IMG/VR virus record: IMGVR_UViG_3300011443_000052
Location: 1-25,356 of that record
Direction: 5' to 3' (one strand)
DNA from: a virus
Lineage: Duplodnaviria > Caudoviricetes
DNA: 25,356 nucleotides
Made by a program: the position numbers and the translations under genes. Below are positions 7,577 to 25,320 of this stretch, one piece after another; the stretch's first letter is position 1, and every line of letters starts with the position of its first letter. The notes beneath the pieces were generated by a model. It worked only from the letters and a program-made list of their open reading frames with translations, was not told where the DNA came from and made no database searches.

Positions 7577-9220
7577 TCAGCTCCCGCTAAGTGCGAAGCT
7601 GGTGAACGCGCTGGGGTACAGGGGGGCGAACCAGAGGATGCCCACCAGCGCCACGTCGCGGCCTGCCTTCGAGGGAACGTCCACCTGGAGGGTGTACGTG
7701 CCATCTTCGGCCCACGCGAAGCCCTCGGACGGCCCGATCAAGACGTCGGTGCCGGTCGAGTTGAGCGCGGGGACGTGGACCGGTCGGAGGCCCGAGATGG
7801 AACCGCCGAGCCCGCCCGCGGCCGTGATGTCGGCCCGGAGGTTCGACCACAGCGGTGCGTTCGTGCCCGACGCCTTGGCGTCGATGAACGCCCCGACTGC
7901 CGCCGAGGACAGCCAGATGGTGTCCGGTGCGGAGAACATCGCGCCGTAGCCCGAGATCCACGCATCGCCGAGCCCGGTCGGGTCGGACGGGTCGAATGAG
8001 CCACCGTCGTTGACGATGTTGCTGCCCGAGCCCGAGCCGAGCAGGGCCTCGACGGCCTCCACTTCGGACTCGATGGCGTAGGCCTCGCCGAGGAGGTTCA
8101 GGTACAGCTCAAGGAACGACGGCGACGACCGCTTGAGGAGTTGGAGGGAGATGTCGCCCGTCCCGCCCTTGGTCACGGCCTCGAAGGTCACCGTATCGAT
8201 GGCCGTCTTGTCGCTCTGAAGGACGTCCTTCTCCTCCATCTGCTGCGCGACTGTCGGCCGGGTCACGATGCGCGGGACGATCAGGTTGAGGCCCGAGTCG
8301 GGCGTCGAGATGTGGGTGGTCGTCTCCATGAACGGCCGGCGCTTGTTGATCTTGCCGATGAGGATGTTGGAGTACGTCGGCGGAACGACGCCGATGTTCT
8401 CCTCGGTCACGAGGTCCTGGAGCTCGCGCATCTGCGCGTCGGGGATGCGGTCGCCGGACAGCATCTTGAGCACGGTTGATGCCCATGAGCCGATGGACGG
8501 GGCGTCCTTCTCCTGGGGCGCGGACGGGATGCCGAACTGCGCCCGGTTGCGCTCCTCCATCGCGGCGAAGCGGTCGTCGAACGACGTCCGCATCTCGGTG
8601 ATCTGCGCCGTCACGGGCGAGAGGTCAAGGATCGGAGCCGCCGGGGTCGGGGCCTCCTGCTCTGCCATTGGTTCGGGTCCCTTCTCGTCCGTTCGGACGC
8701 TGATGACTTCGGCCTCGCGGTAGGCGGGCTTGTAGGTCGTGCTTGCGCCGGTGAGGTTCACGCGGTTATGGACGCGGGTGCGCCGACCGCTGATCGTCTC
8801 GACGGACGTGCCGCCGGGGATCTCGGTGAACTCGATGGAGATGCCCTTGACGATGCCCTCGTTGGCGAGCTCAAGGATCTCGTCGCCCGCCTGCGTCTTC
8901 GCGACGCGCATCGTGGCGTAGCCGCCATCGGGTGCGCTCCAGAGGCGGATGGCCTTGCCCGACGGGCGTCGGGTGAGGGTCGGCCGGCTGGCCTGATCGA
9001 GGCCGAGGTGGGCCTCGTGGTTCATACCCATCAGGAGCACGGCCCCGGGCTCGATGCCGTCGAAGGCACCAGCGCGGAACATCTCCGGGCCCTGGACGGT
9101 GTTGATCGCCGTGTCCCACGGCACGAGTCGGACGTCGATCTCGCGCTTCGACAGGTCGCGGACTTGGACGTCGGCCTCGCTGACCAACGCCTGCAACTCG
9201 GGGATGAGTTCGTCTGCCAA
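7577..9220 (-). CDS. Prohead protease-major capsid protein fusion (HK97 fold), 547 aa
   Basis: N-terminal protease-like domain (EMFRAGAF, NHE, GDEILELANEGIVKGISIEF), Pro/Ala linker, then capsid domain (GVVPPTY, QQMEEKD, DISLQLLKRSSPSF); TTG start with SD TAGGAGG. Confidence 0.9.
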   Translation of the reverse strand: MADELIPELQALVSEADVQVRDLSKREIDVRLVPWDTAINTVQGPEMFRAGAFDGIEPGAVLLMGMNHEAHLGLDQASRPTLTRRPSGKAIRLWSAPDGGYATMRVAKTQAGDEILELANEGIVKGISIEFTEIPGGTSVETISGRRTRVHNRVNLTGASTTYKPAYREAEVISVRTDEKGPEPMAEQEAPTPAAPILDLSPVTAQITEMRTSFDDRFAAMEERNRAQFGIPSAPQEKDAPSIGSWASTVLKMLSGDRIPDAQMRELQDLVTEENIGVVPPTYSNILIGKINKRRPFMETTTHISTPDSGLNLIVPRIVTRPTVAQQMEEKDVLQSDKTAIDTVTFEAVTKGGTGDISLQLLKRSSPSFLELYLNLLGEAYAIESEVEAVEALLGSGSGSNIVNDGGSFDPSDPTGLGDAWISGYGAMFSAPDTIWLSSAAVGAFIDAKASGTNAPLWSNLRADITAAGGLGGSISGLRPVHVPALNSTGTDVLIGPSEGFAWAEDGTYTLQVDVPSKAGRDVALVGILWFAPLYPSAFTSFALSGS

Positions 9221-9302
9221 AGGAATGACCTCCTACGCTGCGCTCATGGGCACTTGCGCGGAGGCCACTTCAACGGCGGGGCACTGAGGCCACTGTGCCG
9301 TC
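9221..9302 (-). promoter_or_regulatory. Structured 5' leader of the capsid gene with a duplicated AGTGGCCTC/AGTGCCC motif and an SD-sequestering stem
   Basis: Minus strand AGTGGCCTC-AGTGCCC (9294-9279) and AGTGGCCTC-cgcgca-AGTGCCC (9269-9248); AGUGGCCUCC (9269-9260) pairs over 10 bp, including two G-U, with GGAGGUCAUU (9233-9224). Confidence 0.7.
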
Positions 9303-9320
9303 GGTATTCGTCTGGCGCGG

Positions 9321-9348
9321 ATGCTACCACGCCGCGTGACGCCGTCTA
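9321..9348 (-). promoter_or_regulatory. Putative promoter for the capsid operon
   Basis: TAGACG-16 nt-TAGCAT with an extended -10 TG. Confidence 0.45.
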
Positions 9349-9963
9349 GCGGTTCATGACGCGTCCACCGTGCCACGTATGCGGCGGGTCGTACCAGCGG
9401 ATCGCGACGCCGTGCTTCTCGGCGTAGTACTTCGCCTGGACCGAGGCATGGCGGTAGCCGCGGTTGCTGCCGCCGTTGGGCGCGGCTCGGCGGTAGTCAT
9501 TCCGGGTGTAGGCGTCGTGACCGACCATGAGGATGGAGGTACAGCCCATCCAGTCCGCGAGCAGAGCTGCGACCGGTGCCGACATCGACGACCACGGCAG
9601 GCCGAAGTCGCCCTCGACGTCGATGACGAACCGAGGGCGGTGGTTGGGGTAGCAGTCTGGCGACTCAGCGGCCGAGAAGATCGCCGTCTCGCCGCGCAGC
9701 AGCGGCACGAGGCGATCGGATGGGCAGGCGCACGACAGCGGCACGTCGGCTTGTCCGTTGTGCGGCATGCAGCCGTCCTTCTGCATGACGTAGAGCGGGT
9801 TCGGAAGGTGGAGCGAGCGGACGGTCAGGATGGCGTGGTTGAGCGTGATGACGGGTCCCGGCGGGAAGTCACGGGCCCTGAGCCGCAGCAGCGACGGGCC
9901 CATGCCGACGATCGTGGCCGTCTGGCCGCGGTGCTTGCGGAACAGGGGCGCGATGGTCGTCAC
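9346..9963 (-). CDS. Maf/DUF115-like (sialyltransferase-related fold) putative glycosyltransferase, 205 aa
   Basis: GTG start overlapping the upstream stop; motifs ATIVGMGPSL, VITLNHA, SAPVAALLADWMGCTSILMVGHD. Confidence 0.65.
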   Translation of the reverse strand: MTTIAPLFRKHRGQTATIVGMGPSLLRLRARDFPPGPVITLNHAILTVRSLHLPNPLYVMQKDGCMPHNGQADVPLSCACPSDRLVPLLRGETAIFSAAESPDCYPNHRPRFVIDVEGDFGLPWSSMSAPVAALLADWMGCTSILMVGHDAYTRNDYRRAAPNGGSNRGYRHASVQAKYYAEKHGVAIRWYDPPHTWHGGRVMNR

Positions 9964-10697
9964 TCGAAGCCACGCTCGATGACGTCCCAGTCCACGGGGA
10001 AGGCCCGTCGCATCCTGCTGTCGATGGGGTACGGGCCTGTCTCCCTGCGTCCCTCCTCCATCGTCTGGCGTCCGACGTTGACGCTGCTGCGGGTGGAGGC
10101 GTGGCGCACCCAGAGCCATGCCGGCGAGTTCGATACAGGCATGAGCGGGGCGAGGCGGGCGACGCCAACGTGGTTGACCTCGTAGATGGTCCGCATCCGG
10201 CCGCGCGGCATGTGGAGCGTGCCGAACTGCGCCCACGGCCAGGTGATGCGCCATGCCTCGGAGCCGACAGTCCGCCATCCCACGGGCAGCGTCCAGACGA
10301 TGGGCTGCCGCCGCCGCTCGGCCGATGCCGCTGCCTGGACGCGGGCCATCGCCCACGGCGCGAGGGCGTCGTCATCATCGAGGCGGGTCGTCAGGGTCTC
10401 GTCGCCCCACTTGATGTACCGCTTCCAGTCGGCGTAGGGGCGGTCATGCGGGGAAGACCGCTCTAGCCTGCCTGGAGGTGCGAACACGACCGGCAGGCCC
10501 GCAGACGCGATGGCTGCCTTGCGCTCGGCCAGCAGCGGGTCGGCGGCATCGACCATGACCAGCCATGTCATCCCGCGGCACGTCTGGGCCCGGAGCGATG
10601 CCGCGGTGACGTCGCGCAGCAGCTCCAACCGCTGCCGGTTCACGTCGAGCGGCACGGACGGAGCGTAGGCGGAGCGCGTCAGGATGTAGTGGCGCAC
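9960..10697 (-). CDS. GT-A fold glycosyltransferase (putative rhamnosyl transferase-like), 245 aa
   Basis: HYILTR...RLELLRDVTAASLRAQT...WLVMVD...TTRLDDDDAL (DxD motif)...WLWVRH. Confidence 0.8.
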   Translation of the reverse strand: MRHYILTRSAYAPSVPLDVNRQRLELLRDVTAASLRAQTCRGMTWLVMVDAADPLLAERKAAIASAGLPVVFAPPGRLERSSPHDRPYADWKRYIKWGDETLTTRLDDDDALAPWAMARVQAAASAERRRQPIVWTLPVGWRTVGSEAWRITWPWAQFGTLHMPRGRMRTIYEVNHVGVARLAPLMPVSNSPAWLWVRHASTRSSVNVGRQTMEEGRRETGPYPIDSRMRRAFPVDWDVIERGFE

Positions 10698-11647
10698 CAG
10701 TCCACCAGCACGTCGGCGGCTCGTTGCGCGGCACCCGGGCGTCGGTCGTAGACGAGATCCAGCGCAGCCTCGCGGGCGGCGATCTGGGGAGGACACTCCT
10801 CCAGCGCCTCGTGAACCGCTTCGACGAGCGAGCCTTGCGGCGTCACCTGGACGCCAACGGTGGCGGCATCCCAGAAGCGGAGCCCGTGGTTGATGTTGCG
10901 CCTGTACCACGGCGGGTTCATGACGACGACGGGGCGGCCCGTGCTGGCGAACTCGAACAGGGTGGAGCTTGCGTCGTTGATGTAGACGTCGGCGCGTCGG
11001 CAGACCTCCTCCCACGGCTTCACGACCTCGATGCCGTGCAGCCTGTAGGACGAGGCGAGCTTGTCGATGATCCGCGGGTGCCCCGTGCCGATGACCTCCA
11101 TCCGGTCTGTGAGCTGGTTCAGCATCCGGCCGAACTCCATGTGGGCCGAGCGCGTCTCCCGGCAGACGCGGCAGTCCCAGTGGAACCCGATGGCGACGAC
11201 GGGGGTCCGACCGCGCTTCTTGCGCGGCAGCGTGTCGAGCTTCGCGCAGCCCACCACCTCGACTCGCGCGGCAGGATAGGCGCGACGGTCACGACCGGCA
11301 GGATGCGGTCCTGGATGGAGGAACAGTTGCGCGTCCCGGTTGCGGCCCCCGGCATAGGAGGAGTGCGTCGCGGACTTCGGGTCGCCGCCGAAGGACTGGC
11401 CGCAGCCGTGCTCCATGATGGCCGTCGGTCGGCGGAGGTGGCGGGCCCGGATAAGGTCGCCCGCCGATGCGACGAGGGTGTGCTTCGACTCCGACGGCTT
11501 GGGGAGGTCGCGCCGCCAGCCGGGGAGATCCCGGTCATGCCCACGGCCGATGTAGTGGAAGGCCCCGCGCTGCTCCTCGGGCAGCGCGAGCCATACCGGT
11601 GCGAGGTGATCGACGAAGTGACCCTCCGCCGCGAGGACGTCGATCAC
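10679..11647 (-). CDS. GT-B fold transferase (CDP-glycerol glycerophosphotransferase TagB/TagF-like), 322 aa
   Basis: GTG at 11647 overlaps the portal stop; EHG, VVGCAKLD, GHPR, ADVYINDASSTLFEFASTGRPVVVMN, GAAQRAAD motifs. Confidence 0.8.
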   Translation of the reverse strand: MIDVLAAEGHFVDHLAPVWLALPEEQRGAFHYIGRGHDRDLPGWRRDLPKPSESKHTLVASAGDLIRARHLRRPTAIMEHGCGQSFGGDPKSATHSSYAGGRNRDAQLFLHPGPHPAGRDRRAYPAARVEVVGCAKLDTLPRKKRGRTPVVAIGFHWDCRVCRETRSAHMEFGRMLNQLTDRMEVIGTGHPRIIDKLASSYRLHGIEVVKPWEEVCRRADVYINDASSTLFEFASTGRPVVVMNPPWYRRNINHGLRFWDAATVGVQVTPQGSLVEAVHEALEECPPQIAAREAALDLVYDRRPGAAQRAADVLVDWCATTS

Positions 11648-13026
11648 GCGGTCTCGGACAGGCCGTAGGACTTCTTGCAGCGCGGACAGGTGCCGGCGAA
11701 CGGACCCGCCTCGGCCAGCAGCCGGTTGCACTTCCGTGATGCCCCGCGGATGACCACGACGCCGCTACAGCGCGTGGGCCCCGCCATCCGGGTGGATGGC
11801 GTTCCGATGGGGAAGGGGATCGACGACGGCACCGACGCGGGCGGCGTGGGCTTGACCGGCGACAGCTCCGGGCTACCGGGGATGAGTCCCTCCATCTCCT
11901 GCGCGTTCTCCGGGGTCAGGACACCCGACTCGATGCCCGTCTTGTAGACGTCGTAACGGGTCTTGATGTCGGCTCGGAGGAGGCCTTGCGTGTAGAACTC
12001 AAGGTGGATGGAGCGCGGCTGGAGGTCGGAGAACGCCTGCTCGATGGGCTCCAGGTAGTTCGGGATCAGGCAGCCCTTGGCGAACGACGTCCAGACCTCG
12101 GTGATGTTCTGGTAGGTCAGGCTGGAGCCGGGGGAGTTGTACTCCATGAGCATGCCGGGGATGCCGTACAGGCGGGCGGCATCGCCGTTGTTGTACTCGC
12201 GGGCGGTGAGCATCTGCGCGCCGTGCTCGTTGATCGGGTGGTCCTTGACCTCCAAGTCGCCCGTGGTGACCTGGACCATGTTCGCCTCGCGTGCCGTCCA
12301 CTGGTCCAGCAGCGCCTCGGACTCGTTCTCGTCGAGGTCCATCCCGGTATGCAGCTCGGTGGTCGGACGCCCGCCCTGCGCGTAGAACCGTGCCGCCCAT
12401 TCCTGCGCCTCGACGGCCACGGACGCCGCCGCGCCGGCCATCTGCAAGGGCCCCATGCCGCGGAGCGCACCCGGCTCCTTGAGGTAGGTGATGTGGACGA
12501 ACTGGCCGTCAGGGGTGGCGGGCGAGTAGCGGGTGGACGTGATGTTGCCCCAGGTGTAGATCGGGCGCAGCCGGTTGCGCGTGTTCTCCTCGACGTTGAG
12601 CTCGTTGAGCGGCACCAGCATCAGCGCCGCCGCGGTGCCATCGGGGTCGCGCTTGGCGATCCAGAGCACCGTCTCGCCACGGCTCGCCATCTGGTAGGCC
12701 ATGTCGCGGTAGGCATCGCGCGGCGTGGTGTACGGGTCCGGGCGGGCGATCACTTGCGGCGTCGGGTCCAGGAGTGCGCCATTGCGGAACGCCTGCATCG
12801 GCAGGGACCCGACGGTGTTGCTGATGAGCGTCACGGCCCGCTGGATCGACGGCACGCCCATCGCCTGCGCGACGGACGGCAGGCGGTAGGCCGGCCCCTT
12901 CTTGTGCAGCCTCGCGAGCTGCTCCTCCATCGATGGGAAGACCTCGAAGTCGTAGGCACCGCGGGTCTGCACGGGCTGCATCGGCTGGAGGGACAGGAAG
13001 TCGGCGATCCGTGACAGGGCGCTCAT
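11644..13026 (-). CDS. HK97-family portal protein with a C-terminal Com-like zinc ribbon, 460 aa
   Basis: VPSIQRAVTLISNTVGSLP, GMGPL, FYAQGGRP, ARLYGIPGMLM, LTYQN, YLEPIEQAFS, LLRADIKTRY, LTPENAQEMEGL; extension RC-x12-CNRLLAE...TCPRCK. Confidence 0.93.
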   Translation of the reverse strand: MSALSRIADFLSLQPMQPVQTRGAYDFEVFPSMEEQLARLHKKGPAYRLPSVAQAMGVPSIQRAVTLISNTVGSLPMQAFRNGALLDPTPQVIARPDPYTTPRDAYRDMAYQMASRGETVLWIAKRDPDGTAAALMLVPLNELNVEENTRNRLRPIYTWGNITSTRYSPATPDGQFVHITYLKEPGALRGMGPLQMAGAAASVAVEAQEWAARFYAQGGRPTTELHTGMDLDENESEALLDQWTAREANMVQVTTGDLEVKDHPINEHGAQMLTAREYNNGDAARLYGIPGMLMEYNSPGSSLTYQNITEVWTSFAKGCLIPNYLEPIEQAFSDLQPRSIHLEFYTQGLLRADIKTRYDVYKTGIESGVLTPENAQEMEGLIPGSPELSPVKPTPPASVPSSIPFPIGTPSTRMAGPTRCSGVVVIRGASRKCNRLLAEAGPFAGTCPRCKKSYGLSETA

Positions 13027-14459
13027 CGGGCATACACCTTCGGGACGGGGGGCCGGGGCCCGGATGCGAGCCATACGGCCCGGATGGCTGCGAGGACGGC
13101 GGTGATCGGTCGGTCGTCACGGGCCCGGACGGCCTCGAACGAACCGCGCTCGTCGTTCTGCTTGCGGGCGGTGAACGTCAGGTCATCCGTCACGGCATCG
13201 ACGTCCTGCCAGCGGAGGCGGGTCCCTTCGATGGCGTTGACGAACTGCGGCGCGGCCTGTCCCGACTTGTTGCCGCCCACGGGCTCCGCGCCGAGGACGT
13301 GCTTCGCCACGCCCTGATCGGTGAGCGGGTCGAACCCCACCTTCCTCGCCCCGTGCTTCGCCTGGAGCGCCTTGACCTCCCTGCCGAACTCGTCCGCGCT
13401 CATGGCCGTGCCACGCCCGTCGATGAGGAGGCGCAGCCCGATCTGGTCGCCCATCGGCCACGCCGCAGCCAGGGCAGCCCGGCTTCCCGACGGGTCCCAC
13501 GCGATGCCGAACGACGGGTGTCGGCCAGTCGGCATCGGCTCCTGGGCCTCGCAGCGCGTCCATGCGAAGGCGTCCACCATGCGTTCGCGGACGCTCGGGA
13601 CCCATCGGCAGAGGTCTTCCGTCTCGAACAGGCTCATCGTGCCGGCGAGCTGGTGGCGGGTGTAGTCGCGCTCCAACGAGTCGAGGACTTGCGGGTAGTG
13701 GCCGAGCGCCGGGTTCGCGGCGTACCAGCCTTCCTTGTCCGACGCTTCGAGCTCGGGCGGAGCGGACCATTCGAGGTAGGCGAGGCTCGGGTCTTTGCCG
13801 GCGCGGTCGCGGACCGAGTTCAGGACGACGCTGTTGTCGAACCCGGCATTGGACAGGTAGACCATCTGCCCCTCAGTGGACATCCGCAGCGTCGGCTCGG
13901 CCGAGGCGATGACGTCGAAGCTGTCCATCTCGCGCAACTCGTCGATGACCACGATGTCGTTCGACCAGCCGCGGGCGCTGCCCCGTCCTGACGCGGCGAT
14001 GCGGTAGGTGCCGCCGTTGGACAGGACGATCTCCTCCTGGCCCGACCCGAACCGCGGCCAGATGACCTTGCCCCGCCGCCTCGGGAACAGGTCGGGCGTC
14101 TGGGACAGCGCGTCCGCGATGACCCGGAACATCGTTCGCGGGAGCTCGCGGTTCTGCGCGATGTGCATGACCTTGAGGCCCGACTTCAACGCGCCGACGA
14201 TGTACGGCTGCATCAGCGTCGTCTTGCCCTGCTGCCTCGCGACGACGATGCACACCTCCTTGTAGAGCGGACCGTCCTTGCCGCGGGCCGTCAGGAACCG
14301 GGACGCGTACTCCTGCCACGGCATCAGTGCGAGGCCCATCGCCTCGGCCTGCTCCTTGAACTTGACGGCCTCATGACGGACGGGTGTCGGTGGCGAGATC
14401 CGCGGGCGGGCAGAGCCGTGCCGCGGGCGACCGGCGTGCCTCGGGGCGAGATCAACCAC
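13023..14459 (-). CDS. Terminase large subunit, about 478 aa
   Basis: LMPWQ, Walker A VARQQGKTT, RGWSND, Walker B VVIDE, YLSNAG coupling motif, WYAANPALG; GTG start inferred at 14459. Confidence 0.93.
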   Translation of the reverse strand: MVDLAPRHAGRPRHGSARPRISPPTPVRHEAVKFKEQAEAMGLALMPWQEYASRFLTARGKDGPLYKEVCIVVARQQGKTTLMQPYIVGALKSGLKVMHIAQNRELPRTMFRVIADALSQTPDLFPRRRGKVIWPRFGSGQEEIVLSNGGTYRIAASGRGSARGWSNDIVVIDELREMDSFDVIASAEPTLRMSTEGQMVYLSNAGFDNSVVLNSVRDRAGKDPSLAYLEWSAPPELEASDKEGWYAANPALGHYPQVLDSLERDYTRHQLAGTMSLFETEDLCRWVPSVRERMVDAFAWTRCEAQEPMPTGRHPSFGIAWDPSGSRAALAAAWPMGDQIGLRLLIDGRGTAMSADEFGREVKALQAKHGARKVGFDPLTDQGVAKHVLGAEPVGGNKSGQAAPQFVNAIEGTRLRWQDVDAVTDDLTFTARKQNDERGSFEAVRARDDRPITAVLAAIRAVWLASGPRPPVPKVYAR

Positions 14460-15048: not shown

Positions 15049-15341
15049 GGGGTGCGCGTCTCCGCGACGTGGGTCACCGTCGAGTACACGCCTACTGCCG
15101 CAGTGGCGCAGGTGAGCCAGGCGACGAACACGGCGAACCATGCTTCGAGCGAGCCGGCCCCTGTGCTGATCCCGGAGAGGACGTACAGGACCAGGGTGAT
15201 GACGAAGGCCATCAGCGCACCCGACACCTTCGCGTTGAGGGGCGGGAACACGGACTTGAGCAGGGCCACGATGCCGGTGGTGAGCGCAGCCGCAGCGGCG
15301 ATGCCCGCCACCTCGAGCAGCGATGCGAGTGTCAGCGTCAT
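15045..15341 (-). CDS. Holin-like protein, 3 predicted TM helices, 98 aa
   Basis: ATGA overlap with the endolysin stop, SD GGAGGAAGG; MTLTLASLLEVAGIAAAAALTTGIVALLK...AVGVYSTV. Confidence 0.75.
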   Translation of the reverse strand: MTLTLASLLEVAGIAAAAALTTGIVALLKSVFPPLNAKVSGALMAFVITLVLYVLSGISTGAGSLEAWFAVFVAWLTCATAAVGVYSTVTHVAETRTP

Positions 15342-16138
15342 CCTTCCTCCTTGTGCGCGAAGTCCGCGCTGACCAGCCATCCGTTGCGCGGCCTGTTGAG
15401 CAGGATCAGGCGCACCAGTGCCCGGTCCGGCTGGCCGAGTCCCTGGTACACCTTCGGGGCCGTGCAAGGGACGTTCATCCCCTCGGTCTGGCGCATGGTC
15501 GCGCCGATGATCCGGCCCTTGGTGTCGAGGTGGAACTGCCGGAATCCCCGCACCGTGGCGGGCGGGTTCGGCCGGCACGTCCACTTCCAGACCGAGGACG
15601 GGGCCGGGACCGGGTTGAGGAACGCGCCGAACTGGATCGTGGGGCGCAGCTTCTCGGCGTACTTCCGCAGGACGGTCCCTCGCTCCCACCGCCCGGTCGG
15701 ACAGATGGGGTCGTCGATCCACCACCAGGTGACCCGGTTCTCCACCTTGGAGCGAGGCCAGATACCGACGCAGTGGTCGCCGTCGAACGCACCCGAGCAC
15801 GTCGCGTTGCCGAACTGGTCGCTATCGCCCTGGAGCGCGACGTAGTGGCCGCTCTTGAGCTGACTGATGAGCGCCGTCCAGCCCTTGCCACCGTGGTCTA
15901 CGAACCCGACGCCGTACCGGCCCATGGCCTTCGCGAGGTCCGCGAGGCTCCACCCGGGCGTCTGCGGGTTCGTCTCCTCGGTCCGCTTGACGAGGGCGTG
16001 GATCTGGTCCGGCGTCGGGTCGTGCCGGCCGCCGGTCGTGGCGTAGATGCCGTTCGCGCCCGAGGTCCACGTACAGCCTGACTGGCGCGTGATCGCGGAG
16101 CAGCCGGGGTCGTACTGCGACTGGTGGTTCAGCGTCAC
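15338..16138 (-). CDS. Endolysin candidate, peptidase C39-like (papain fold) with an unrecognised C-terminal domain
   Basis: SQ...SGCTWTS (Gln, catalytic Cys), GDHCVGI (His), WIDDP (Asp); flanked by membrane protein genes. Confidence 0.75.
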   Translation of the reverse strand: MTLNHQSQYDPGCSAITRQSGCTWTSGANGIYATTGGRHDPTPDQIHALVKRTEETNPQTPGWSLADLAKAMGRYGVGFVDHGGKGWTALISQLKSGHYVALQGDSDQFGNATCSGAFDGDHCVGIWPRSKVENRVTWWWIDDPICPTGRWERGTVLRKYAEKLRPTIQFGAFLNPVPAPSSVWKWTCRPNPPATVRGFRQFHLDTKGRIIGATMRQTEGMNVPCTAPKVYQGLGQPDRALVRLILLNRPRNGWLVSADFAHKEEG

Positions 16139-23801: not shown

Positions 23802-24191
23802 GTGCTCGCCCAGAACGAGCTCGCCCGGGCAACACGGGGTGAGGACTTCAAGCGCCTGGTTCGGGCTGCCGCCGCGCTAGTCGGGATCTACGACGACAAG
23901 GCCCTCGCGGAGGCCGTCGGGCGCCAGCGGAACACCGTCGCCGGATGGTGGAGGGGCGCGAAGCCCGAGCCCGACACGATCCAGCCCCTCGGCAGGGTTA
24001 CCCGCCTGGATGCCGACGAGCTGTACCGCTACCTGTACCTGGGCGGCCCGGTGCCGCGTCTCGCGCAGCCGGGTTCGCCTGCGGATCGGGCGCTCCAAGA
24101 AGGACTGCAGCGGGGTCTGCCACCCCCGCCCGACGAAGGTCCTGAGCAGCCCGGGCCGTTGCCTCCGCAACGGCCTGGCGGAACCGATTGA
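23802..24191 (+). CDS. Immunity repressor (XRE-type HTH), 129 aa
   Basis: GTG with AAAGAGGGG upstream; DKALAEAVGRQRNTVAGWWRGAKPEPDTIQPLGRVTRL; divergent from cro; no recognisable S24 peptidase domain. Confidence 0.8.
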   Translation: MLAQNELARATRGEDFKRLVRAAAALVGIYDDKALAEAVGRQRNTVAGWWRGAKPEPDTIQPLGRVTRLDADELYRYLYLGGPVPRLAQPGSPADRALQEGLQRGLPPPPDEGPEQPGPLPPQRPGGTD

Positions 24192-24330
24192 GGATGGCCT
24201 CCTCGGTGGGCATCTGGGTCCCCGCGCCGTCGTCGACCCGGCGATGGTCGGCCGGCGGGCTGCTCGCCTCGAGCGGTTGAGCATCCACCCGATGGCGGCC
24301 CGTGTCATCCCCGAAGTTGTGTCAGCTTCG

Positions 24331-25320
24331 ATGACAACGGCCCGTCGGCTGTCCACCGGGTATCCACAGTCCGGGACCTACGCGCTCGCGGTCCTGCTCG
24401 TCGCGTTCGCCTCCGCCCAGGCATCGCTCGCGACCGTCTCCCGCATGCTCACCAACATCGGGATCCACGGGACGCCGTTCTCCGACTGGCAGCACTACGC
24501 CATGTCGTGGAACCGGGTGGCCTCCGGCGGCCCGCTCTACGACCCGGCGCAGCTCGCGGGTCCATTCCACTTCCCCGACATGCTGTTCACCGGGTGGGCG
24601 TACTCGCCGCCCTCCGTGATCCTGTGGGCGCCGTTCGCCTGGTGGCCGGGCGGGTACGTCTTGTGGACGGTCGTCAACGTCGGGCTGCTGCTGACGGCCC
24701 TGTGGGCGGCGAGCTCCCGCCAGTGGCGCGCACACCGGCTGATCGCGTTCGGCGTGATCCTCCTGGTCCTCGGTCTGTACCCGCCGTTCATCGAGGCGGC
24801 GTCACTCGGCAACCCGGACCTCGCGCTCGCGGGGCTGCTCATGTGGGCGTGGCTGAGTCCGCGGTGGGCCGTCGCCGCCGGGGTGCTCGGCGGGCTGGCG
24901 AAGCTCGCTCCCGCCGCGATCCTGCTCTGGGTCAGCCGGGACGGCCGGCGGTACACCGTCGCGGGCTTCGCCATCCTTGCGGGGGTGTCGCTCCTGCTGC
25001 TGCCGCTGTCGGGGGCATGGCTGGACTTCGCGACGACGCTGCGCCTCGCGCAGGCGCCCTGCGGCGGGGAGAACGTGGCGGTGGCGTGCCTGTTCCCCGA
25101 CCCGGTCGTCGGGCGGACAGTGGGCATCCTGCTCGCGGGGACGATGTCCGTGGCGTCGGCGTTCGTCCCGTCCCGCTGGTTCGGGTTCGCCCTCGCCTGT
25201 CTCGCGTACCCGGTCGCGAACCCGGATCTCCGCGGCCACACGTTCCTGCCGCTCGTCCCAGTCGTGGTCGCCGGGGCGATGGAGATCACACGCCGTCGAT
25301 GGTCAGGTTGTACTGCTTGA
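24331..25320 (+). CDS. GT87-like (GT-C fold) polytopic membrane glycosyltransferase, probable lysogenic conversion gene
   Basis: DWQHY...GGPLYDP...AYSPP..ILWAPF...LWTVVN...GNPD...LAKLAP with many TM segments; start codon uncertain. Confidence 0.85.
   Translation: MTTARRLSTGYPQSGTYALAVLLVAFASAQASLATVSRMLTNIGIHGTPFSDWQHYAMSWNRVASGGPLYDPAQLAGPFHFPDMLFTGWAYSPPSVILWAPFAWWPGGYVLWTVVNVGLLLTALWAASSRQWRAHRLIAFGVILLVLGLYPPFIEAASLGNPDLALAGLLMWAWLSPRWAVAAGVLGGLAKLAPAAILLWVSRDGRRYTVAGFAILAGVSLLLLPLSGAWLDFATTLRLAQAPCGGENVAVACLFPDPVVGRTVGILLAGTMSVASAFVPSRWFGFALACLAYPVANPDLRGHTFLPLVPVVVAGAMEITRRRWSGCTA

Follow-up and report, generated by a model that had tools for sequence, protein, structure and literature searches.

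Introduction

In tailed phages, one portal ring is built per several hundred coat subunits, and the portal is needed when the shell nucleates. The order in which portal and coat are supplied is mostly credited to operon order and ribosome-binding strength. Com, a regulator of phage Mu, is to our knowledge known only from mom-type control.

Three described systems come closest to the locus reported here. HK97-family portals (PF04860, phrog_12, TIGR01537; PDB 8fql and 8cez) share with it the core sequence, the fold and the order terminase–portal–protease/capsid. Com of the Mu com/mom system (PF10122 Zn_ribbon_Com; PHROG 13819 and 6417) is a Cys4 ribbon of the same family as the tail of our portal. 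The Com SELEX motif is GAG(N)2CC, present twice and symmetric around a 3–4-bp stem, beside a translation-inhibition hairpin (PMC6483171). Mu Com activates by remodelling its RNA, and the same is predicted for the portal ribbon. RAZR has in common with the portal tail a Cys4 zinc-ribbon-like domain, which contacts portal rings (PMC13017515).

Here we describe a phage portal that carries a Com-type ribbon at its C-terminus and a conserved RNA leader in front of the protease–capsid gene of the same block.

Results

A portal gene with a four-Cys tail

The window (the whole stretch of DNA analysed, 25,356 nucleotides) is the 25-kb virus record IMGVR_UViG_3300011443_000052. It has a GC content of ~69% and encodes an integrase, and its host is likely a member of the Chloroflexota. 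The head–tail block lies on the minus strand in the order HNH, large terminase, portal, three accessory genes, protease–capsid fusion and tail genes (Table 1). Accessory genes 1–3 are joined to the portal via overlapping stop and start codons; the first is replaced or missing in many relatives, and the −35 element of a predicted promoter takes its first three bases from the stop codon of the third. All three lie upstream of the leader described below and thus are not under its control, which rules out a mom-like target among them.

Table 1. Features of the portal and protease–capsid region, in window coordinates
Feature	Position	Strand	Basis or remark
Portal gene, 460 aa, HK97-type with Com-type zinc ribbon	11644..13026	-	Single open frame; domain and Foldseek matches
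Portal core, residues 60–380	11887..12849	-	PF04860, E 2.1e-46
Pro-rich flexible linker, residues 381–419	11770..11886	-	Sequence; pLDDT 63–74, without secondary structure
Arg413, candidate prohead-protease site	11788..11790	-	Inferred; conserved Arg before ribbon
Com-type Cys4 ribbon, C420–C450, β-hairpin insert at 421–432	11677..11769	-	Cys pattern, profiles, AlphaFold2
Accessory gene 1, glycerophosphotransferase-like	10679..11647	-	PF04464; start overlaps portal stop
Accessory gene 2, rhamnosyltransferase-like	9960..10697	-	PF11316; start read from sequence
Accessory gene 3	9346..9963	-	Weak MptE-like match, below cut-off
Predicted sigma70-type promoter	9321..9348	-	−35 at 9348–9343, 16-nt spacer, −10 at 9326–9321; 8/12 matches
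Conserved two-hairpin 5' leader	9210..9313	-	84.4 bits with leader model; window itself in training set
Hairpin 1 of leader	9272–9302	-	Box 1 at its tip
Com box 1: GU, 3-bp stem, C-N3-GU loop	9280..9293	-	Tip of hairpin 1
Hairpin 2, predicted OFF fold	9224..9269	-	Masks GGAGG 9229–9233; U-rich spacer follows
Com box 2, alternative helix, 5' half = anti-Shine-Dalgarno strand	9249..9268	-	Box search, folding
Prohead protease–major capsid fusion, 547 aa, TTG start	7577..9220	-	Gene behind leader

The preliminary description of this DNA had read the portal gene as a portal followed by a Pro-rich linker and a four-Cys tail with a widened first Cys pair. Both points held: a single frame runs 13026→11644 with PF04860 at residues 60–380, and the first pair is C-x12-C (C420, C433). 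The PF04860 match scored 159 bits against a cut-off of 39.1, phrog_12 matched as well, and the gene sits behind the large terminase. The best Foldseek match of the core was the HK97 portal 8fql (E 3.5e-17). TIGR01537 gave 87.6 bits, under its cut-off of 112. The peptide cited in the preliminary description as the portal end lies just upstream of position 11880, which it gave as the boundary of the tail. One contig of a possible source run spans 11146–13100; it is not independent of the window.

The tail Cys residues, at 420, 433, 447 and 450, form two pairs in the pattern C-x12-C-x13-C-x2-C, which suggests that the tail binds zinc. AlphaFold2 modelled residues 421–450 as a β-ribbon at pLDDT 91–94; in this model the 12 inserted residues form a β-hairpin, and the linker has no structure.

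We then surveyed related portals for the same tail. At E≤1e-20 we obtained 474 homologues, and ribbon counts were taken from the best 120 of them. The ribbon was kept in 110 of these 120: a four-Cys ribbon in 103 and a C-x2-H/C-x2-C form in 7, with none in the other 10. Among the 103 four-Cys homologues, the first pair was spaced by x12 in 51, by x16 in 38 and by x2 in 6. The single frame and the presence of the ribbon in 110/120 best-listed homologues rule out a frameshift, an assembly slip or a chance fusion. No cultured phage bearing the portal–ribbon fusion was found among the matches listed.

Related portals occurred in MAGs labelled Chloroflexia (one within a 2.69-Mb contig), Limnocylindria and Anaerolineaceae, and also on short contigs labelled Deltaproteobacteria and Actinomycetota. 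The Chloroflexia and Limnocylindria genomes with related portals were both in one class sample.

Kinship of the portal ribbon with Com

The tail had also been called Com-like, a claim that stood for the family of portal ribbons and failed for the window tail on its own score. The window tail gave 12.7 and 13.1 bits with the Pfam Com family (PF10122), whose gathering cut-off is 22.9, and this score was level with that of a generic ribbon family. Com was nevertheless the commonest Pfam family for 63 portal ribbons (30 match at E≤0.5), and the PF10122 cut-off was reached by 4 ribbons in a mostly short-spaced set from 21 relatives. Conversely, a profile made from the 63 portal ribbons matched 426 proteins at E≤0.001. 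Those listed included 146 new proteins, 113 of them small and without a portal match. When the 40 top-ranked small stand-alone matches were tested, 35 reached the PF10122 cut-off, and the annotated gpCom of phage Chuche scored 39.6 bits on the portal-ribbon profile. Because profiles match in both directions at family level, the portal tail can be classed, at that level, as a Com-family ribbon with an inserted hairpin. A widened first Cys pair was present in 19 of 112 small Met-starting profile matches, some of which are possibly portal fragments.

Other searches were less informative. Sequence searches of the PDB with the ribbon returned generic ribbons only, with no Com structure among the matches. 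VIA-align gave two rows for the ribbon (Z 2.2, over 43 residues only), again with no Com structure among the matches. A single-sequence scan of viral proteins with the window portal yielded nothing useful. An Atlas feature search, which we treat as a lead only, had a best score of 0.83 and placed a Com cluster at 0.80.

A structured leader in front of the protease–capsid gene

The RNA stretch 9302–9218, singled out in the preliminary description as RNA to assay with the isolated domain, turned out to belong to a conserved structured leader, 2.3 kb downstream of the window portal. Related loci have a common layout: a TTGAC-type promoter, two hairpins and a U-rich spacer, all upstream of the protease–capsid gene. 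The leader is followed directly by the protease–capsid fusion itself or by a small gene ahead of it. In hairpin 2 of the relatives, a CCUCC-like strand is paired to the GGAGG Shine-Dalgarno sequence. In 52 of 74 leaders TTGAC occurs no farther than 48 nt upstream, versus 2.1% of 13,703 background windows; a simple promoter scanner missed the window copy of the promoter. Four or more U are present in the U-rich spacer of 56 of 63 leaders, versus 1 of 169 control spacers. Rfam, at its gathering score, gave 0 matches over the whole window.

We asked how far the pairings are conserved as structure. In the model-fitted leader alignment, 83% of cells pair, versus 68% in shuffled and 41–51% in slid alignments, and compensatory changes occur at 16 of 19 pairs, a count from an alignment whose fitting favours structure. 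G·U wobbles are found at two pairs of the Shine-Dalgarno helix, in 15/60 and 21/60 sequences. RNAalifold on the raw leader alignment recovered just 7 pairs. Two mis-cut leaders (L036 and L071) were left out of the training alignment. The computed cost of opening the window Shine-Dalgarno was ~15 kcal/mol, versus 1.9–9.5 kcal/mol at 14 other window starts. The predicted fold and the covariation thus point to a hairpin over the start signals of the capsid gene.

Com-type boxes in the leader

We compared the leaders with the Com site. The exact SELEX string is present in hairpin 1 of 3/53 leaders (0.015 in shuffled sequences), and the published all-A form of the box in 7/53 (shuffled, 1.2). The relaxed shape GW-stem-C N2-3 GW-stem, in which the U-for-A relaxation was chosen after the data had been seen, occurs in 45/53 leaders versus a shuffle mean of 4.6 and a background of 9.5%. 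The window boxes are of the U form; they have the shape of a Com site and not the exact Mu letters. The loop-only Mu motif was not enriched (17/53 leaders versus 12.2 shuffled).

Box 2 is present in 51/53 leaders with six stem types. The anti-Shine-Dalgarno strand serves as its 5' half, and its 3' half is found ahead of the Shine-Dalgarno. The two halves of a given box are Watson-Crick-matched in 49/52 cases versus 18 when permuted, a figure inflated by relatedness. Forcing box 2 made the Shine-Dalgarno cheaper to open in 43/51 leaders (median 11.4→5.5 kcal/mol; window 15.0→9.0); in the other 8/51, opening was eased by no more than 1 kcal/mol. Formation of box 2 itself has a computed median cost of 11.6 kcal/mol at equilibrium; at ~11 kcal/mol, a model of activation has to invoke kinetic trapping or else multivalent binding. 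The flanking G and C also pair when box 2 is forced, which makes the box a symmetric helix in which each strand bulges out a single base. Such a helix would explain how box-2 loops can range from 5 to 21 nt: most leaders have a loop of 11–21 nt, versus the 5–6-nt Com loop.

Ribbon and leader occur together

We scored the joint occurrence of ribbon and leader in 91 distinct loci with both a portal end and a capsid gene, 33 of which had been used for training. The leader was found in 33 of 35 non-training ribbon loci (24 strong matches; 9 weak ones in the right place, with the same anatomy as judged by eye; 2 without any) and in 0 of 23 ribbon-less loci, which amount to about one outgroup clade. 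The count was made without repeat contigs and without L146, whose portal is 100% identical; L016 and L085, both strong leader matches, were left out as duplicates. A nested ribbon-losing clade of 10 proteins, for which a search turned up no downstream DNA, lies outside the leader count; L120 and L128 stop inside the portal. The tree used here was a quick tree with 10 short cores left out. Two loci, L058 and L095, have a ribbon and no leader match, and five loci without the fourth Cys still have the leader. The leader is absent from L179, L209/L210 and three cultured phages, all of them ribbon-less lineages in which the next gene is coupled directly to the portal.

The reverse test, which started from the RNA, is stronger than the forward count. 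Matches to a DNA pattern built on hairpin 2 fell on 9 viral contigs, and in 9/9 the leader stands behind a ribbon portal. Five of these contigs were already known and 4 were new, all 4 behind ribbon portals; three of the four new portals had no significant BLAST match to the window portal. We fetched two cultured relatives of these unrelated-lineage portals (43–48% identity), and both were without ribbon and leader. P0263 represents a third lineage of portals that bears the tail. An RNA-first scan for A-type boxes found known contigs only. Ribbon and leader could be travelling together as one recombination block.

Ribbon residues and box bases

Where a ribbon has Gly at C2+5 together with Glu at C3−3, as in L021 and L086, the boxes were A-type in 11/12 cases versus 6/46 for the others (Fisher 6e-7), a rule chosen post hoc, after the data had been seen. 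The automatic box parser used for this test misread at least L116, L055 and L030 and left many box-2 blanks; 13 rows were dropped. On the portal tree the Gly/Glu trait is scattered, with 8 changes, and ~7/7 independent pairs agree (median p 0.016). The capsid tree showed the same trend, not significantly (median p 0.125). Of eight loci found later and read by eye, 7 followed the rule and 1 was a tie. The window ribbon has Ala/Ala at the two positions and its boxes carry four U. The gpCom of Chuche breaks the rule, with Ala/Glu beside an A-type motif.

Possible trimming before the ribbon

The portal C-terminus points to the capsid interior. Of 111 ribbon portals, 100 have an Arg among the final 12 residues of the linker, and in 67 the residue after it is Ser/Thr; elsewhere in the linker, Arg makes up 23/2105 residues (~1%). 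Five short ribbon-less portals stop at about that Arg/Lys. Similar Arg motifs are found at the portal N-terminus and at protease–capsid junctions. We infer that the Arg-Ser/Thr motifs are prohead-protease sites, and the motif fits the option, raised in the preliminary description, that a cleaved tail of the portal is active.

Discussion

At the level of sequence comparison, our analysis documents the fusion, its Com kinship, the leader with two boxes, the covarying pairings and the joint occurrence. We propose that the portal-borne Com ribbon binds the leader boxes and that a captured box 2 prevents the Shine-Dalgarno-masking hairpin, so that capsid would be made only once portal is present; we put the probability of this reading at roughly 0.68. 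The leader would be transcribed from a host sigma70-type promoter. Left unliganded, it would fold into hairpin 2 and hide the Shine-Dalgarno, and the U-rich tail may also terminate transcription. Since the two halves of box 2 are both located 5' of the Shine-Dalgarno, the ribbon could trap box 2 co-transcriptionally: seizing the nascent box during transcription, it would keep the anti-Shine-Dalgarno strand occupied, with box 1 captured too. Each two-fold symmetric box would suit a pair of ribbons, and a portal ring, with its flexible linkers, would present several of them. Once the portal is built into proheads, the ribbon would be hidden and probably cut at Arg413, and the signal would fall. 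A fuller version, to which we would give even odds, makes the portal a sequence-specific switch of capsid synthesis: ring-borne Com ribbons would trap a strand-swap RNA that is both attenuator and translation lock, assembly and trimming would remove the activator, and the cassette, with a simple residue-to-base code, would have been transferred to two or more portal lineages that are unrelated.

The same binding could in principle have the opposite sign. Free portal might stabilise the closed fold, or block initiation from box 1, as negative feedback; evidence of the binding type is blind to direction, box 1 exists in the closed fold, and box 2 is costly to form. Yet masking of the Shine-Dalgarno needs no protein (15 kcal/mol), which leaves little to repress, box 2 is kept by compensatory change though it excludes the closed helix, and Mu Com is an activator (PMC6483171). 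We consider repression unlikely. A reading that matches our proposal, except that the active form is in every case a small released protein, produced by a cut at Arg413 or by a restart in the linker, with the fusion only linking amount and timing to the synthesis of portal, draws on the conserved Arg-Ser/Thr before the ribbon (Arg in 100/111), on the short ribbon-less portals that end at about that residue, on the occurrence of the same motif at protease–capsid junctions, and on Met414 directly after Arg413 in the window. But the protease gene is itself behind the leader, which means that an initial activation could not rely on its product, and Met follows the Arg in just 4/100 relatives. We regard this version as very unlikely.

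Two further readings take the RNA away from the ribbon. The ribbon might be a DNA-binding transcription factor acting on repeats behind the promoter, the hairpins being incidental: the repeats are directly downstream of a conserved promoter, and zinc ribbons often bind DNA. Stem bases, however, show compensatory changes around a constant bulged GW, and the Shine-Dalgarno helix retains G·U wobbles, a signature of RNA structure; Com, moreover, binds hairpin RNA (PMC6483171). We regard DNA binding as highly improbable. The tail could instead be structural or serve counter-defence, through contact with packaging DNA or as a RAZR-type decoy, while the leader answers another factor such as a capsid precursor. 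RAZR does sense portal rings via its Cys4 domain (PMC13017515), autoregulation of capsid genes through leaders has general precedent, and two ribbon loci are without a leader match. This distinctly unlikely arrangement has to contend with Com as the nearest family of the tail, with the Com-site shape of the leader boxes, with the recurrence of ribbon and leader together on unrelated portals, and with a box base that tracks ribbon residues over 7–8 changes, on portal and capsid trees.

If activation by the portal-borne ribbon is the true reading, the portal would be an RNA-binding activator of the capsid operon with a built-in shut-off on assembly, and the role of Com would widen from mom-type control to regulation of morphogenesis. 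With dozens of natural ribbon–leader pairs that differ in their bulged bases, the still unsolved recognition code of Com could be tested using a 45-residue peptide and a 100-nt RNA, with no need to grow the host. We found no report of a portal–Com fusion or of the leader in searches of the open-access literature.

Comparison with the known systems sets the locus apart from each of them. The cultured HK97-type relatives (best 15 listed) match the window portal up to residue 418 only, at ~30% identity; in the three that we fetched, the last 120 residues hold no Cys, the portal gene abuts or overlaps the protease gene, and there is no leader. RAZR combines a host sensor with a HEPN RNase in one fusion (PMC13017515) and is likened to the tail by description, whereas the best family of the tail is Com. 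With Mu com/mom the locus shares a bipartite hairpin site with a C-N2-3-G-W loop, beside a hairpin that hides the start (PMC6483171). The leader differs from the Mu site in that its bulged base is mostly U, that it has two boxes, one of which is the anti-Shine-Dalgarno strand, and that it ends in a U-rich tail. Mu Com is a free 62-aa protein with Cys 6, 9, 26 and 29 (PMC3299994), whereas the portal ribbon is a C-terminal fusion. The first pair of Mu Com is C-x2-C (Cys6/Cys9, PMC3299994); that of the window is C-x12-C, and most portal ribbons carry a hairpin insert of 10–18 residues. The target of Mu Com is a DNA-modification gene in its own operon, whereas here it would be the protease–capsid operon, which lies from under 0.1 to ~6.7 kb away. 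Judged from their sequences, the portal–ribbon fusion and its leader are real and conserved; they would work like Mu Com and mom, from which they depart in Cys spacing, in the Pfam score of the ribbon itself, in the lack of a free-standing form and in target.

Ribbon variants and their leaders

A divergent subtype of the Com-type zinc ribbon at the portal C-terminus occurs together with leaders in which the halves of box 2, the second Com-type site, start with AC and not GW (related loci L141, positions 1422-1524, L147, L170, and L177). Divergent ribbons and AC-type leaders are an additional natural pair on which specificity could be tested. The portal ends of L037–L046 lack the fourth Cys of the ribbon and carry a His a few residues further; their leader is intact. 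The leader model also gave a single antisense match (26 bits) in the head-completion region of locus L092 (6987-7103, minus strand).

Some portals bear an extra Pro/Val-rich C-terminal extension of 60–200 residues. Among the 120 best-listed of 474 homologues, it was found in 26 of the 103 four-Cys portals and in 5 of the 10 without a ribbon. It terminates in a common Arg/Asp/Gly-Arg-Ile motif, and a family search with the extension matched no family. Carriers include the homologues P0006, P0013, P0031, P0059, and P0104 and the portals of loci L002, L015, and L054.

Genes around the leader

The portal-to-leader interval of the window contains glycosyltransferase-like genes (see table), whose role, we would guess, is virion or DNA glycosylation. 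The same interval in relatives holds variable cargo of 0–7 kb, often drawn from these families but arranged differently. A literature search yielded nothing on this.

Small basic proteins (55–95 aa) are encoded ahead of the protease–capsid gene whether the leader is present or absent. Their gene is the first after the leader in L028, L050, L054, L055, L085, L097, L116, and L141 and follows the portal in L101–L113. Their motif appears similar to SAP/HeH helix pairs.

Further features of the window
Feature	Position	Strand	Location
Three glycosyltransferase-like genes	9346–11647	−	Portal-to-leader interval, coupled to portal
Peptidase C39-like ORF (weak match)	15338–16138	−	Lysis region
ORF with long hydrophobic, membrane-protein part	24010–25320	+	Near right end

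Ribbons and possible ribbons elsewhere

P0263 (479 aa) is a canonical HK97-like portal with 23% identity to that of the window and a Com-like ribbon at its end. Judged by its protein sequence, it represents a third portal lineage with such a ribbon. In a prophage on a 2.69-Mb contig (L087:8001-9345), both ribbon and leader are present and the portal frame is broken, which reflects either a true frameshift or misassembly of the contig. Tblastn with a short-spaced ribbon query returned weak matches (E 0.05–0.8; H34–H41 and H48–H52) in Arthrobacter phages including LiSara, Salgado, and Laroye, mostly in unannotated DNA. These similarities may possibly reflect overlooked Com genes in cultured phages.
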